From: Acidimicrobiia bacterium
GTDB lineage: Bacteria; Actinomycetota; Acidimicrobiia; Spongiisociales; ZC4RG35
Assembly: GCA_035762545.1 (NCBI GenBank)
Contig: DASTOM010000024.1
Location: 1,007 to 65,006, forward strand
Direction: 5' to 3'
DNA: 64,000 nt
Each line of letters begins with the position of its first letter. Position 1 is the stretch's first letter. Under the pieces are notes generated by a model. It did no database searches. It saw only the letters and a program-made list of their open reading frames with translations, and was not told where the DNA came from. Made by a program: the position numbers and the translations under genes. Shown piece by piece: positions 35,947-58,679 of the stretch.

Positions 35947-36075
35947 GACCTCACGTCGAGCCTGCATACCGTCTCGCAGGGCAGGTCATGGTGCAGGTTC
36001 GACGAAGAGATGATCGTGACCTCACGTCGAGCCTGCATACCGTCTCCGACAACGGGACACCTTGCAGGTTCGGCG
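35947..36075 (+). repeat. tandem pair (71-nt period) of a 12-bp-stem / 25-nt-loop hairpin element
   Basis: A 29-nt perfect direct repeat GACCTCACGTCGAGCCTGCATACCGTCTC occurs at 35947 and 36018. Each copy folds GTCGAGCCTGCA (35955-35966; 36026-36037) onto TGCAGGTTCGAC/GGC (35992-36003; 36063-36074). G-U wobbles form only if read on the plus strand. Confidence 0.7.
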
Positions 36076-42095: not shown

Positions 42096-44260
42096 CAGGA
42101 GACGAACAGCCAGTCGACCTCGTCGCCGAGCATCGCCGCCACCTCGTCGAGGAGCTCGAGATGCTCGCCAAGCGCCGGGTCAGAGTCGACCAAGGCGAAT
42201 GCGTCCCGCCGGGCCACTGCCAGGATGTCGAAGTCGGCCAGGATGTCGGCGAGTTTCAGGTCTTTGACACCCGACTGGCGGGTCCCGAACACCGTCCCCT
42301 GTCCCCTGATTCGGAGGTCTTCCTCGGCAAGCCGGAAGCCGTCGGTCGTGGACACCATGGCAGCCAGACGTTCCTCGCCCTCGGTCGTGGTGGGGTCGGC
42401 GAGCAGGATGCACGCACCCGGAAACTCACCTCGTCCGACCCGACCTCGGAGCTGGTGCAGCTGGCTGAGCCCGAAGCGCTGGGCGTCTTCGATGACCATC
42501 ACCGTGGCGTTGGGGACATCGATCCCGACCTCGATGACGGTCGTCGACACCAGGACGTCGATGTCTCCTGCCCGGAACGCCGCCATGACCTGTTCTTTGT
42601 CGGCCGATCTCAGCTGACCGTGGATCAGCCCCACCCGGAGGTCGGGCATGAGGGCGGCGAGCCGCTCGGACTCGGCGGTCGCCGATGCAGCCTCGACCTT
42701 GGGGCTGTCCTCCACGAGCGGGCAGACCACGAACGCCTGCCTGCCCTTCGCCACCTCCGACTCGATCAGCCTCCAGGCGGTCTGCTCCTCCAGTTTCGAG
42801 ATCAGCCGGGTCTTCACCGGGGTCCTTCCCGGGGGCAGCTCGTCGATGATCGATACGTCGAGGTCCCCGTAGAGAGTCATCGAGAGCGTTCGCGGGATCG
42901 GTGTCGCCGTCATGATGAGGAGGTCGGGTTCGGCGACGTCCGCCTTCTCCTTGAGCATCACTCTCTGTGCCACTCCAAAGCGGTGTTGCTCGTCGACCAC
43001 GGCGACGCCTAACGCCTTGAACGAAACGCCCTCCTGGATCAGGGCATGGGTTCCGACGATGAGATCGACCTGGCCAGCGGCGACGTCCTCGGCCAACTCG
43101 GCTCGGGTGATGTCGGGGTTGTAGTTGGTGACGGCGGTCGACCCGGTGAGGAGGGCGACATGAACGGCCGGCCCCTCCGATCGCTCGGCGAAGAGGCTGT
43201 CCATCCCGAGATGGGACTCCCCGAGGGCAGGAGACAGGCCGGCGTCGGCGAGCAGGCCACGGACCCCGAGGTAGTGCTGCTCGGCGAGGACTTCGGTGGG
43301 TGCCATAAGCGCCCCCTGCCAACCCCCTTCGATCCCGCGGAGAAGGGTGGCCACCGCGACCACCGTTTTTCCCGAGCCCACCTCGCCCTGGAGCAGCCGG
43401 TGCATGGGGTGGCCCTGGGCCAGGTCCGCCTCGATCTCGTCGAGGACCCGCTCTTGCGCCCGGGTCAGGTCGTAGGGCAGACCGTCGAGGAACCTCGTCA
43501 CCAACTCCCCGGTGAACACGTGCTCGATGCCGATCGAACTCAGCATCTGGTGGCGTTTTTGGAGGGCGAGCGCCAGTTCGAGACGGAAGAGCTCGTCGTA
43601 GACCAGTCGTCGCCGCGCCGGCCCCACCTGGTCGAGGCTGTCGGGGAAGTGGATCTGGCTGAAGGCGTCGCTCCGCTCCATGAGGCCGTTGGCCGCCTTC
43701 AGTTCGGTCGGCACCGTGTCGTGGATCGGTTGGGAACGAGCGATGGCGTTGTGAATCGCCCGTCGCAGATACCCGGGGGCGACGCCCCCGACACTGGAGT
43801 GAACCGGGACGACACGTCCGACGGTCAGGCCCTCGGCCTCAGATCCCAAGACGTCTACCTCGGGTGATTTCATCTGCAGCGTGCCCCGGAAAGACTCGAC
43901 CTCACCCGAGAGCGCCACCTCGGTCGCACTGTCCAATTGACGAACCCGGAAGCTCTGGTTGAACCAGACACACTTGATCCGTGCCGAGTCGTCCTCGACG
44001 ACCGCCTCGATGATGTGGAGATTGCGGCGGGGCCGACGATCCTTCACCGACACGACCGTTCCGATGATCGTGACCTCCTGACCGATCGGGACCTGGGCGA
44101 TCGGTGACTTCCTCGATCGATCGATGTAGCGACGGGGGACATGATGGAGCAGATCGGCGACGCTCGAGATCCCGTTCTGTTTGAGGGATTCGGCTCTCTT
44201 GCCCCCGAGACCCTTGACCTCGGCGACGTCGACGGCGGCGAGACGGCTCAGTGATGCCAC
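42095..44260 (-). CDS. recG: ATP-dependent DNA helicase RecG
   Basis: 721 aa. Wedge/OB N-domain, [43 protein letters not shown]. Confidence 0.95.
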
Positions 44261-56637: not shown

Positions 56638-57239
56638 CAGCTGCCACCTCCGAGAAGCTTGCCCTTCTGGGCTTCGAACTCCTCGTCGCTGAGCTTGCCC
56701 TGGTCGTGCAGCCGGGAGAGACGCTCGAGCTGGGAGACGGAGTCTGAGCCGCCGCCACCTCCGTGGTCGTTCGAATGAATCCTCACTTCCCTGACCTTGT
56801 AGATGAGGGACTGGACGGCCTCGGGCTTGGGGATGTCCTTGTACCGGGTCTGACCGTGTGTCCCGGCCGACTCGATCATCAGGTCGCCAGTGCCGAAGAT
56901 CCTCTCGAAGATCGTCTGGTTGAAGGCGACGTTCTGGATCACCTCGAGCGGGATCTCGGTCCCCTGTTTGGCGATCAACCCGGCCCTGTAGATGATGCGC
57001 TCGTTGGTGATGACGTGATTGGTCGTCACCCACCGGGTGATGCCTCTCACGATCAGGACGATCACCAACCCGGCGACCGCCCACAGCAGCCATGTCGGCC
57101 AACCGAGGACCAGGACCAGAACAGCGAGCGCGATCCCGATGAGGATGATGAGACTCTCCCGCAAGATCCCGGACCAGTGCGGCCTGAATTCGGTCTCGAT
57201 GACTTCGCCCTCGCTGAGGAGACGTTTCGGGTAACCCAT
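56637..57239 (-). CDS. membrane PH-domain (bPH_2/YdbS-like) protein with C-terminal SHOCT domain
   Basis: ATG 57239: MGYPKRLLSEGEVIETEFRPHWSGI..., two TM segments, VTTNHVITNERIIYRAG...DLMIESAG, Gly run, then SVSQLERLSRLHDQGKLSDEEFEAQKGKLL. ATGA overlap with the ligase start. Confidence 0.75.
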   Translation of the reverse strand: MGYPKRLLSEGEVIETEFRPHWSGILRESLIILIGIALAVLVLVLGWPTWLLWAVAGLVIVLIVRGITRWVTTNHVITNERIIYRAGLIAKQGTEIPLEVIQNVAFNQTIFERIFGTGDLMIESAGTHGQTRYKDIPKPEAVQSLIYKVREVRIHSNDHGGGGGSDSVSQLERLSRLHDQGKLSDEEFEAQKGKLLGGGS

Positions 57240-57290
57240 GCACCGAGAATACCGGCGCACGGGTTTCCTGGTCGCCGTGTCGGATGTCAT

Positions 57291-57339
57291 GTCGAACCTG
57301 CATGCCGGACCTCGCTCCGGGACACGGTGCAGGCCCGAC
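57291..57339 (-). repeat. third copy of the 12-bp-stem / 25-nt-loop hairpin element
   Basis: On the minus strand, GUCGGGCCUGCA (57339-57328) pairs with UGCAGGUUCGAC (57302-57291). Two G-U pairs form on this strand only. 52 nt upstream of the PH-SHOCT start codon. Confidence 0.65.
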
Positions 57340-57390
57340 AGAAGGGCGTCCGACGGGAACCGGACGAGACGCCCGGCGAAGGACCAGCCC

Positions 57391-57443
57391 AGAACGCGAG
57401 AAACCCCGAGGGAGCATCGGCCGAAGCCTCAACCCTCTCGGGG
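57391..57443 (-). terminator. putative intrinsic terminator of the large RNA candidate
   Basis: CCCCGAGAGGGUUGAGGC[UUCG]GCCGAUGCUCCCUCGGGG (57443-57404) followed by UUUCUCGCGUUCU. Confidence 0.5.
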
Positions 57444-57811
57444 CTCTCATTTCCGATCGGCGTCGGGCCGGGGACCCAACTCCGTTCGGAGATGCAGCGG
57501 GACGAATCCCACTGCGTCGTGATTCGTGAGAATCACGTGGCGTCGGTTTCACAACCTGGCCCCTGGCGACCTCTCGGTCTCCCTGGGCCGACCTTCCGGT
57601 CCGCCGTGGCGAATCTTGCGACAAGCCGTGGTCCGTTTCCGCTCGACGATCCCGAAGGATCCCCTTCCGGTCCTGGACCGACCGTGCGCCTGCAGTTTCC
57701 CGCATGCGTTCGGCTGACCTTCCTGCCGGTTTTACCCGGCTCTCCGGTCCGACCAGTCCTGCGGTTACCCGCCGTGTCGGTCGCCGTCGTCGGGTTTCCC
57801 CGTCGACGTGG
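57391..57811 (-). ncRNA. candidate ~420-nt highly structured RNA, family not recognised
   Basis: No credible ORF in any frame. At least 10 local hairpins whose loops are GNRA or UUCG only on the minus strand. Flanked by a promoter-like TTGTCA-17-TACTTT and a terminator-like hairpin plus UUUCUCGCGUUCU. Ends are estimates. Confidence 0.6.
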
Positions 57812-57816
57812 CGGGA

Positions 57817-57845
57817 AAAGTAGACCACGCCCCCCACCCTGACAA
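57817..57845 (-). promoter_or_regulatory. sigma70-like promoter, TTGTCA (57845-57840) - 17 nt - TACTTT (57822-57817)
   Basis: Read directly. Same hexamers, same 17-nt spacing and a G-rich spacer as the promoter at 58556-58584. Confidence 0.5.
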
Positions 57846-57856
57846 ATCGAATGCGT

Positions 57857-57891
57857 CATTGTTTTTCGCGAGTTGTGAATCAGTTTTCGCG
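57857..57891. promoter_or_regulatory. CATTG + direct repeat TTTTCGCG-N13-TTTTCGCG module (copy A)
   Basis: CATTGTTTTTCGCGAGTTGTGAATCAGTTTTCGCG lies between the RNA promoter and the divergent gene at 57922. A near-identical module lies at 58597-58629. Confidence 0.5.
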
Positions 57892-57921
57892 CCCGGGTAA
57901 CCGACCCGTAGGTTTGCGGCA

Positions 57922-58398
57922 ATGGGAGCCCTCGCAGACTGCGAAGCCATCGTCGACTCGTTCTTGGGGCAGCGGGTCAACTCGATCACCACTCTGGCAT
58001 TCGTGGTGGCGGCGTTCGTGGTCTGGCGGTGGTCGACACGGGTGTGGGTCGCTATCGGTCTCTCCCTGACCGGTGTGGGATCGTTCTTCTTTCACGGACC
58101 GATGCCCTCGTGGGCGCAGGTGGCACACGACGTTTCCCTCTGGTTCCTCGTCGTCATCGTCATCGTCGAGATCGGACGCGACCTGTTGAGAACCAGAGAG
58201 TGGCGCCCCCTTGTCGGTCCGCTGACATTGCTGGCAGTCGTGGCGGTGATCGGTCGACTCGGAGCGACCGGGAACCCACTGTGTGATCCAGCCTCGATCT
58301 GGCAGCCACACGGCCTGTGGCACATCGGTGCGGCTACGGCGGTGACATGGTGGGCGGTTGCTACGGCACCCAAGACCCCCATGACGGATCACTCATGA
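57922..58398 (+). CDS. integral membrane protein, unknown function
   Basis: 158 aa, about 5 TM segments (ITTLAFVVAAFVVW, VWVAIGLSLTGVGSFFFHG, VSLWFLVVIVIVEIG, LTLLAVVAVIG, LWHIGAATAVTWWAV). Confidence 0.6.
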   Translation: MGALADCEAIVDSFLGQRVNSITTLAFVVAAFVVWRWSTRVWVAIGLSLTGVGSFFFHGPMPSWAQVAHDVSLWFLVVIVIVEIGRDLLRTREWRPLVGPLTLLAVVAVIGRLGATGNPLCDPASIWQPHGLWHIGAATAVTWWAVATAPKTPMTDHS

Positions 58399-58399
58399 C

Positions 58400-58549
58400 G
58401 CGGAAGAGCCCCAAGGGAGCCGTGACCGAAGTCTCAGCCCTCTTGGGGCTTCCGGGCCACTCACCCGGAAAGCGGGCCCCGGGATGGGTGACCTTCCAGA
58501 GTCGCCTTGCGGCTACTCCTTCCCCGACTGAGGTTGCCCTCATTCGGTA
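58400..58549 (-). ncRNA. candidate ~150-nt structured sRNA, shorter paralogue of the 57391-57811 RNA
   Basis: Promoter TTGACG-17-TACTTT. Hairpins GAGG[GCAA]CCUC and GCC[GCAA]GGC, a shared GGAAGGUC box, and a terminal UUCG hairpin homologous to that of the large RNA with two compensatory pair changes. Confidence 0.55.
58410..58449. terminator. stem-loop usable as a bidirectional terminator (plus: membrane protein gene; minus: sRNA candidate)
   Basis: CCCCAAGGGAGCCGTGACCGAAGTCTCAGCCCTCTTGGGG starts 12 nt after the stop of 57922..58398. Flanked by CTTCC (plus) and CTCTTCC (minus). The U-tracts are weak. Confidence 0.45.
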
Positions 58550-58555
58550 GAGCGG

Positions 58556-58584
58556 AAAGTACGCAGGGGGGCACAACCCGTCAA
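58556..58584 (-). promoter_or_regulatory. sigma70-like promoter, TTGACG (58584-58579) - 17 nt - TACTTT (58561-58556)
   Basis: Read directly. Paralogous to 57817-57845. Confidence 0.5.
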
Positions 58585-58596
58585 GCCGTCGCACCC

Positions 58597-58629
58597 CATT
58601 GTTTTCGCGTCTTACGGGCAGATTTCGCG
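58597..58629. promoter_or_regulatory. CATTG + direct repeat TTTTCGCG-N12-ATTTCGCG module (copy B)
   Basis: CATTGTTTTCGCGTCTTACGGGCAGATTTCGCG lies between the sRNA promoter and the divergent MFS gene at 58680. Confidence 0.5.
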
Positions 58630-58679
58630 GTCGTAAATGGCGGCTGCGGAGCTCGGGTCATCGTTAGCGTCGAACGTCC

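Follow-up and report, generated by a model that had tools for sequence, protein, structure and literature searches.

Does the DNA that precedes the PH-SHOCT gene of an Acidimicrobiia bacterium (GenBank assembly GCA_035762545.1, contig DASTOM010000024.1) encode a structured RNA, and if so, is that RNA a gene of its own or the leader of the operon that follows? The question was raised by an earlier reading of the sequence alone, which proposed an RNA with its own promoter and terminator on the minus strand of a stretch of 64,000 nucleotides (nt), here called the window, and left both options standing. Our analysis supports with high confidence that positions 57809-57391 of the minus strand encode a genuine, stand-alone and novel structured non-coding RNA, which we call the large RNA. 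We give roughly an even chance to the further reading that it is the longer of two paralogous, independently transcribed RNAs that act in trans as a protein-binding pair. The second RNA gene, the sister, and the promoter boxes common to both genes had gone unnoticed in the sequence-only reading.

A conserved fold on the minus strand

The large RNA gene occupies the following part of the window, with both ends predicted:

57391..57809, minus strand: large RNA, about 419 nt, predicted to start about 7 nt past the -10 box and to end past the tail of the 3' hairpin

Each of the nine hairpins that had been listed from the sequence was found at its minus-strand coordinates, as was the UUCG-capped 3' hairpin followed by UUUCUCGCGUUCU (57443-57391). 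The minimum free energy (MFE) of the minus strand between 57815 and 57385 is -236.2 kcal/mol, compared with -188.9 +/- 5.9 kcal/mol for dinucleotide shuffles (z = -8.09, none of 100 shuffles being as good); the plus strand gives z = -3.62 against shuffles of the same kind. Tetraloops closed by at least 4 bp comprise six GNRA and two UUCG loops on the minus strand, compared with a single GNRA loop on the plus strand. The minus-strand loop bias that had been claimed agrees with this census and with the strand-specific G.U pairs described below.

Homologous sequences were aligned with MAFFT (alignment A2, 67 sequences), and a consensus structure was derived with RNAalifold. Seventy-seven pairs were predicted, 37 of which show compensatory double changes. 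Standard pairs fill 97.6% of the paired cells in A2, against 33-52% when the partners are slid by 1-3 columns, and cells changed on both sides number 333, against 35-56 with the same displacement. None of 500 shuffles matched the observed value on any of five measures. The best covariation support was obtained for helices P1, H6, H9 and H10 and for the outer part of H11 (listed below). The check that had been proposed along with the RNA, a search for homologues and for covariation, thus found both. In addition, several column pairs, 318-335, 652-658 and 696-721 among them, are G.U or U.G in 66-67 of the 67 sequences; read from the opposite strand they would turn into A.C mismatches, which places the RNA on the minus strand. 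A long-range pairing of A2 columns 75-79 with the 3' tail (columns 737-742) also came out of RNAalifold and has 13-17 double changes, yet these follow a two-clade split, and nine sequences are unpaired at each of two pairs; this pairing is treated as unproven.

The locus lies in high-GC DNA, with stop-free frames of 90-157 codons. Among pairs of homologues more than 80% identical, just 50 of 1681 indels (3%) are divisible by three, and because the indels ignore the reading frame, the large RNA is judged not to be coding. Variability of the alignment columns by codon position (0.22, 0.21 and 0.24) reveals no codon periodicity. Both results agree with the earlier judgement that the region contains no believable open reading frame (ORF).

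Distribution of the large RNA

A profile of the PH-SHOCT protein was used to fetch 80 loci from species-representative genomes, all of them metagenome-assembled and nearly all labelled Acidimicrobiia or Actinomycetota; the closest relatives of the PH-SHOCT protein itself are annotated Acidimicrobiia. A blastn search with positions 57925-57240 (minus strand) as query matched about 70 of the 80 loci with 61-83% identity over window positions 57891-57386 (query 35-540). The invariant 20-mer GGGGATCYYTMGGGATCGTC, from the H5 block, was found in 112 metagenome contigs, nearly all of which contain a full-length homologue. Altogether, 133 unique full-length large RNAs of 364-516 nt (median 403 nt) were obtained, and the carriers are well over 100 uncultured Acidimicrobiia. 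The gene is single-copy and syntenic rather than dispersed. A search of a viral contig collection yielded no match for either invariant block, and a phage origin was rejected.

Architecture of the large RNA

The large RNA is a linear string of local hairpins capped by GNRA or UUCG loops, some of them nested to about 55 nt. No pairs spanning more than 100 nt recur in at least 15 of the 67 MFE folds. From 5' to 3', the following elements were delimited:

57786..57807, minus strand: P1, the 5' hairpin GUCGACGGGGAAACCCGACGAC with a GAAA loop (A2 columns 16-39)
57716..57784, minus strand: H2 and H3, variable 5' hairpins (MFE fold of the window RNA)
57682..57713, minus strand: H4, with a conserved CGGGAAACYG apex (A2 columns 251-295)
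57630..57679, minus strand: H5, a nested stem around the invariant (A)GGGGAUCCUUCGGGAUCGUCG (A2 columns 300-354)
57609..57626, minus strand: H6, a GNRA-capped hairpin with a GCAA loop (A2 columns 406-424)
57540..57605, minus strand: variable central domain of nested hairpins (MFE fold)
57519..57536, minus strand: H9, GUGAUUC[UCAC]GAAUCAC (A2 columns 565-582)
57494..57515, minus strand: H10, GCAGUGGGA[UUCG]UCCCGCUGC (A2 columns 605-627)
57452..57489, minus strand: H11, a long hairpin whose apex is the C-rich UUGGGUCCCCGGCCCGA at 57482-57460 (A2 columns 637-677)

Several of these helices covary strongly. In A2, pair 17-38 of P1 occurs as C-G 39 times and as U-A 24 times, and pair 607-625 of H10 as C-G 40 times, as A-U 14 times and as U-A 10 times. 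Compensatory changes were found in six of the seven pairs of H6, affecting 13-22 sequences each at four of them, and in six of the seven pairs of H9, which reads GCGAUC[UUCG]GAUCGC in most homologues. In H4 the GGGAAAC is near-invariant and pair 253-293 has 12 double changes. H11 has 19 double changes at its outer pair 639-674 and 13 at pair 649-661, and its apex GGUCCCCGGCC is invariant.

Other blocks are invariant even where they are paired, namely GGGGAUCCUUCGGGAUCGUCG of H5 (57665-57644), the H11 apex GGGUCCCCGGCCC and the 3' hairpin. In the inner hairpin of H5 (columns 316-337), six of the eight pairs are without any variation in the 67 sequences, and this therefore points to a constraint on sequence and not on structure alone.

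The remaining domains are variable. H2 and H3 consist of outer stems, purine-rich internal loops and inner hairpins capped by GUAA and GUAAAA, and in this region both length and module number vary among homologues; no reliable column-wise covariation was obtained for it. The central domain contains the hairpins GACC[GGAA]GGUC, GACC[GAGA]GGUC and GGUU[GUGA]AACC, in place of which other lineages have one to several UUCG hairpins. Hairpins of the cUUCGg type number 2-12 per RNA and GGGARAC apices or loops 1-5. The most enriched words, CUUCGG (3.9 per RNA, 0.37 expected) and GGGAAAC (1.9, 0.1 expected), are those of the tetraloops. The box GGAAGGUC does occur twice, at 57723 and 57597, as had been reported, and is not a conserved core element: GGAAGG is missing from 76 of the 133 unique homologues. 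In one locus (L008, positions 2585-2687), a 39-nt hairpin-plus-linker module, AAGCCAAAGGGAAACUGGAGGCGGAAGGUCAAGGACGGA, is present in 2.7 tandem copies within the large RNA. This module is a unit of GAAA hairpin and GGAAGG linker, and it shows the 5' domain growing by duplication.

Promoter and 3' module

Four further elements were delimited upstream of the large RNA and at its 3' end:

57883..57891, minus strand: promoter box 1, CGCGAAAAC, with CGCGAAA conserved among homologues
57857..57871, minus strand: promoter box 2, TCGCGAAAAACAATG, 25 nt ahead of the -35 TTG
57817..57845, minus strand: putative core promoter, with -35 TTGTCA at 57845-57840, a 17-nt spacer and -10 TACTTT at 57822-57817
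57391..57448, minus strand: 3' module, a presumed terminator and recognition handle delimited by conservation

The TTGTCA-17 nt-TACTTT arrangement lies at 57845-57817, where it had been described, and is probably the promoter of the large RNA. TACTTT agrees with the actinobacterial -10 consensus TANNNT, and across 168 homologous promoters there is hardly any variation in the -35 TTG, the 17-nt spacer or TAC.TT. Scanners based on an E. coli-type consensus called neither a promoter nor a terminator at the locus, and there is no canonical U-tract. The claim that the RNA has a promoter and a terminator of its own is thus backed by the near-invariance of both across homologues (322 instances in the case of the 3' hairpin), but not by a call from such scanners.

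Among the 168 promoters, box 2 has the near-invariant consensus TCGCGAAAA.CAA at a fixed spacing, and the start of box 1 lies 21 nt ahead of the start of box 2 in 111 of the 143 that fit the pattern. When 96 sister promoters were added to the set, a double-box layout common to both RNA genes emerged: CGCGAAA occurs twice at an interval of 20-21 nt, and the -35 TTG follows 25 nt after the second copy. Within the 64-kb window this layout is found at the large RNA and sister promoters only, and in 1.26 Mb of collected loci all 278 of its 278 occurrences are at the two genes or their truncated variants.

The 3' module reads GAGAG-CCCCGAGAGGG-UUGAG-GC[UUCG]GC-CGAUG-CUCCCUCGGGG-UUUCUC, followed by the tail GCGUUCU. 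Its 322 instances (199 from large RNAs and 123 from sisters) include 275 unique ones, in which identity reaches 98% or more at most positions of the stem, 273 retain one particular G.U pair and covariation is confined to four pairs. In A2, nine of the 15 pairs of the 3' hairpin never vary.

Two minor observations concern this end of the gene. The 3' tail TTTCTCGCG (57391-57403) resembles the reverse complement of the promoter box CGCGAAAA (57883-57891 and 57862-57871, minus strand), and box-like sequences in opposite orientation flank each RNA gene; pairing of the tail with CGAGAG at the foot of the hairpin explains part of this resemblance. Farther along, at 57344-57374 (minus strand), a G+C-rich inverted repeat, GGGCGUC..UCCG-loop-CGGA-CGCCC followed by UUCU, was read by eye from the sequence and could be a back-up terminator.

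A sister RNA gene

In most loci, a second and stronger match of 85-96% identity, limited to the 3' hairpin, lies upstream of the large RNA. This was the first clue to the sister, which the alignment of compact loci revealed to be a complete second RNA gene:

58402..58630, minus strand: sister small-RNA gene, with the RNA at about 58549-58402 (about 148 nt; nhmmer match 58561..58396)
58630-58621 and 58610-58601, minus strand: sister promoter boxes CCGCGAAATC and ACGCGAAAAC
58584-58580 and 58561-58556, minus strand: sister -35 TTGAC and -10 TACTTT

The 52 full-length homologues of the sister share four hairpins with covariation, and the loop GGGGCCCGCUUUCC of the third, S3, is invariant. The parts that sister and large RNA have in common are a GNRA-capped 5' hairpin, CGGGGA-(UUCG hairpin)-GGAUCG, a C-rich hairpin and the same 3' hairpin; by sequence, the sister is evidently a shortened paralogue of the large RNA. 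Minimal sisters also exist, in which the promoter is followed nearly at once by the GGGGGCCCGCUUUCC hairpin and the 3' hairpin and the first two hairpins are absent (L008 at about 2320, L012 at about 2291, L041 at about 2338, L083, L085, L088 and others).

The sister gene is conserved in more than 120 loci. In a few, it lies on the strand opposite to the large RNA or about 2 kb away (L066, 470-306; L090, L102, L121 and L169), and the tandem arrangement is therefore usual and not obligatory. The sister segment CCGGGGGCCC (58470-58481) is complementary to GGGUCCCCGG of the large RNA (57466-57477) over 10 bp with one G.U, and both are invariant. This post hoc observation hints at a possible RNA-RNA contact, which we discounted: such complementarity is fairly expected in sequence made of G and C only, and it is uncompensated in L008, where both segments vary.

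Comparison with known RNA families

Rfam 15 (4227 covariance models) gave no match at the gathering threshold in the 64-kb window or in 20 related loci, in keeping with the earlier failure to assign the RNA to a family. At E <= 10, positions 57100-58000 and 58380-58650 returned chance-level microRNA and small nucleolar RNA hits only, of at most 18 bits. The literature, searched by topic and by literal sequence strings, yielded no published description. As far as Rfam 15 and the searchable literature go, this RNA family is previously undescribed.

RNase P was rejected, since CR-I (GGAAAGUCCGG) and CR-IV/V (ACAGAACCCGGCUUA) are absent from 57809-57391 at up to two mismatches and neither RF00010 nor RF00011 matches. 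No tRNA or tmRNA was found in the window. A 6S RNA was rejected for want of an end-pairing rod, for its length (364-516 nt here, about 180-200 nt in 6S) and for the absence of an RF00013 match.

Ms1 and 6S are stable RNAs that bind RNA polymerase, and Ms1 takes the place of 6S in actinobacteria. Ms1 (MTS2823 or scr3559) is an actinobacterial RNA of a few hundred nt with conserved synteny that is elusive by sequence (PMC4191392, PMC9130861). It was rejected on three grounds. By sequence, the 229-nt Ms1 of S. coelicolor (supplement of PMC9130861), the one Ms1 compared, matched the two window RNAs in blastn over 18 nt at best (E = 0.14). By synteny, the Ms1 gene is flanked by genes for a HAD-IB hydrolase (phosphoserine phosphatase) and an oxidoreductase (PMC9130861), as opposed to PH-SHOCT and AMP-binding ligase genes on one side here and genes for a small membrane protein, an MFS transporter and a PD-(D/E)XK nuclease on the other. 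By structure, Ms1 is a rod with a central bubble (PMC4191392), whereas the consensus obtained here is a series of local hairpins with no recurrent long-range pairs. What the large RNA shares with Ms1 and 6S is its actinobacterial setting, a length of a few hundred nt, a single-gene unit, a sigma-A-like promoter, a terminator hairpin and conserved synteny, and it, too, might titrate a central enzyme. Unlike them, it has a sister with a common 3' module and lacks a long hairpin with a central bubble.

Decoys of the CsrB/RsmZ type display GGA motifs in high number (some 5-20), either in the loops of hairpins or in single strands. Such a decoy was rejected here, as no GGA-type word occurs at high copy and only four of the 18 GGA triplets of the window RNA are free of any pairing; CsrA is not known as an actinobacterial protein. 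The resemblance to CsrB/CsrC and RsmX/Y/Z lies in paralogues of unequal length, a shared upstream activating sequence, beads-on-a-string hairpins, a terminator hairpin and a module number that differs between species through tandem duplication. In contrast to CsrB/CsrC, the loops here are GNRA or UUCG, with no many-fold GGA-in-loop motif and no Rfam match. GlmY and GlmZ are homologous small RNAs (sRNAs) with similar promoters bearing repeated activator sites, and one of them decoys the protein that binds their shared module. They differ from the present pair in phylum and in sigma factor and have no sequence relationship with it; moreover, it is the 3' hairpin that the present pair shares, and its members differ about threefold in length.

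6C RNA is defined by two adjacent hairpins with C-rich loops, and RNAIII of S. aureus, about 500 nt long, folds into many hairpins and conserves its 3' domain. The present RNAs resemble both in having a conserved apical loop rich in C near the 3' end; they differ in their one C-rich loop per RNA, their invariant stems and the lack of an encoded peptide. 6C itself was rejected because there is one C-rich apex per RNA instead of two adjacent loops and no RF01066 match at E <= 10. Like OLE, ROOL, GOLLD and raiA, the large RNA is a sizeable non-coding RNA of bacteria that covaries strongly, is rich in GNRA loops and is without an assigned biochemical role. It is, however, smaller, with no detected multi-way junctions or long-range helices and no Rfam match, and it is distinguished by variable modules, a sister gene, a dedicated promoter and a chromosomal, syntenic location not linked to phages.

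Proposed function of the RNA pair

Our confidence in any specific mechanism for the two RNAs is moderate to low. If they act as a trans-acting, protein-binding pair, both would be transcribed from sigma-A-type promoters, and the two phased CGCGAAA boxes would drive or bend these promoters so that the two genes are co-regulated. The long 3' hairpin would mark the end of both RNAs, which would act in trans. The invariant helices, with their unvarying G.U wobble, would offer a common partner protein docking sites that it recognises by sequence, the variable hairpins would provide a stabilising or multivalent scaffold, and the pair would titrate or scaffold the common partner in the manner of 6S/Ms1, CsrB/CsrC or GlmY/GlmZ.

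Protein binding is favoured because the invariance of helix sequences and a fixed G.U are shared by paralogues that otherwise differ. The pairs of H5 and of the 3' hairpin are frozen in A2 while neighbouring helices covary freely, and since neither a terminator nor a seed region needs such invariance, specific protein recognition is the preferred explanation. Paralogues, shared promoter elements and a variable module number together make up the pattern of CsrB/C, RsmX/Y/Z and GlmY/Z.

Several points weigh against this interpretation. The start and end of the transcript are predicted, and both the RNA and its partner are proposed from sequence data. In the variable domains, column-wise alignment of the helices failed. 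The enriched words are tetraloops, with no many-copy single-stranded motif like the GGA of CsrB, and a long rod around a central bubble, such as 6S/Ms1 form, was not found. The invariant helices could also result from alternative pairings, RNA-RNA contacts or tertiary packing, and the conserved C-rich loops, UCCCCGG of the large RNA and CCCGCU of the sister, suit base pairing equally well.

A more far-reaching possibility, which we consider less likely than not, is that the pair represents a new Acidimicrobiia class of ribonucleoprotein or RNA-only machine under dedicated control of the CGCGAAA double box. Its invariant helices and G.U would then form a partner site or a core unlike that of any described bacterial non-coding RNA system, and the pair would work otherwise than as a decoy for RNA polymerase, a sponge of the Csr type or a plain antisense sRNA.

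The main rival to protein binding is base pairing through the C-rich loops, which we consider unlikely. The loops GGGUCCCCGGCCC of the large RNA and GGGGGCCCGCUUUCC of the sister would pair with G-rich sites in mRNAs, for example ribosome-binding sites, and the rest of each RNA would be scaffold, as in RNAIII and 6C. An invariant H11 apex above a covarying lower stem and the invariant S3 loop of the sister suit this explanation, as do the truncated sisters, whose S3 and 3' hairpins alone amount to a classic seed-plus-terminator layout, and the precedent of RNAIII, likewise multi-hairpin, of comparable length and with a conserved 3' domain. It does not account for the invariance of long double-stranded stems (H5 and the 3' hairpin), which base-pairing sRNAs do not need. 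Besides, each RNA has a single C-rich loop, the predicted CCC loop is 3 nt long and closed by G-C-rich pairs, and the 6C model of Rfam finds no match even at E <= 10.

Less probable still is an RNA-only machine, that is, a compact tertiary fold held by GNRA contacts which would be catalytic or self-oligomerising, like ROOL, GOLLD and OLE, which assemble into oligomers by themselves (PMC12286853). The many GNRA loops and conserved GGGAAAC apices would fit such a fold, the invariant helices could be tetraloop receptors or an active site, the size (364-516 nt) is suitable, and near-palindromic invariant segments (GGGCCC, CCGG) could mediate kissing contacts. However, the 67 MFE folds contain no conserved long-range helices or multi-way junctions (pseudoknots were not tested), the module number is highly variable, which is unusual in a precise tertiary core, and the shared elements are retained by the much shorter sister and even by its two-hairpin form.

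Gene neighbourhood: stand-alone gene or leader

In the window, the large RNA is followed by the gene for a membrane protein with bPH_2 and SHOCT domains (PH-SHOCT) and then by that for an AMP-binding acyl-CoA ligase. The usual order across loci is a divergent PD-(D/E)XK nuclease gene, an optional MFS transporter gene, the sister RNA, an optional small membrane-protein gene on the other strand, the large RNA, an optional PH-domain paralogue, PH-SHOCT and the acyl-CoA ligase. In 110 loci the sequence reached far enough downstream for the next recognised gene to be scored:

PH-domain gene, same strand: 77 loci
Hydrolase-cyclase gene, same strand: 12 loci
Acyl-CoA ligase gene, same strand: 4 loci
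M24-like peptidase gene, opposite strand (convergent): 17 loci

A cis-acting leader or attenuator, in which the 3' hairpin governs read-through into the PH-SHOCT and acyl-CoA ligase operon, would agree with the co-directional downstream gene in 93 of the 110 loci, mostly a PH-domain gene, and with the gap of about 130-150 nt to the PH-SHOCT start in the window. We nevertheless hold it to be very improbable, because the gene that comes next differs between loci and is convergent in 17 of the 110, because the 3' hairpin recurs in the sister, behind which no coding gene runs in the same direction where the RNA genes adjoin, and because the GGAAGGUC box is not a conserved core element. The hairpin is itself invariant, no conserved competing antiterminator appears in the RNAalifold consensus or the MFE survey (suboptimal and alternative folds were not searched systematically), and no riboswitch family matches. 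As for the two options of the sequence-only reading, the long operon leader is thus disfavoured, and a stand-alone RNA gene is favoured by what the loci suggest, namely a conserved promoter and 3' hairpin with predicted transcription and variable neighbours, the general marks of such a gene; read-through may occur in the majority arrangement.

That there is no RNA gene here at all, but an overlooked protein-coding gene, an element acting as DNA (a repeat or a region bound by protein) or a GC-rich sequence that folds by chance, is hardly credible: high-GC DNA does yield stop-free frames of the lengths seen and folds well in general, even on the plus strand (z = -3.6), yet the scarcity of in-frame indels, the lack of codon periodicity, compensatory changes in 37 pairs, far above the slid and shuffled controls, conserved strand-specific G.U pairs, and a single-copy, syntenic gene that is not dispersed and is absent from viral contigs all stand against it.

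Significance

Large, strongly conserved bacterial RNAs without an assigned function are rare, and such RNAs have opened new biochemistry before, from RNase P, tmRNA, 6S and riboswitches to, lately, OLE, ROOL and GOLLD. The present family is well defined, with more than 130 distinct full-length sequences, clear covariation and a clean gene boundary; its short and minimal sister forms are a built-in comparison that hints at which modules matter, and its promoter signature implies a dedicated regulator. The Acidimicrobiia are abundant in soil, freshwater and the sea, and almost no RNA biology has so far come from them. To our knowledge, Actinobacteria generally lack Hfq, ProQ and CsrA, and any protein partner of the 3' hairpin would therefore be a candidate for the role of the global RNA-binding protein that the group is missing. 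The family is ready for covariance models, metatranscriptome mapping and pull-downs.

Minor features of the locus

The two RNA genes are separated by a gene for a 158-aa membrane protein (57922-58398, plus strand), which is limited to the clade of the window (L001, L002, L004, L060 and others). Its product has a sub-threshold match to the Ceramidase family of Pfam (24.5 bits, cut-off 32.5). The stop codon abuts the 3' hairpin of the sister on the other strand, and this hairpin may therefore terminate transcription in both directions.

The window also contains three copies of a REP-like palindrome, GCCTGCA-N(28)-TGCAGGTTCG, none being expected by chance. One copy (57293-57334, minus strand) lies between the 3' hairpin of the large RNA and the PH-SHOCT start codon, the other two (35960-36001 and 36031-36072, plus strand) stand in tandem in another intergenic region, and a weaker match is found at 43686-43728.

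The start of PH-SHOCT is ambiguous within 57239-57290 (minus strand). The ATG at 57239 had been chosen in the sequence-only reading, and a longer ATG-initiated ORF from 57290 overlaps the palindrome. By exact look-up in a protein collection, the PH-SHOCT product as first delimited is not on record; a 207-aa version is, and from its length the start would be the GTG at 57260.

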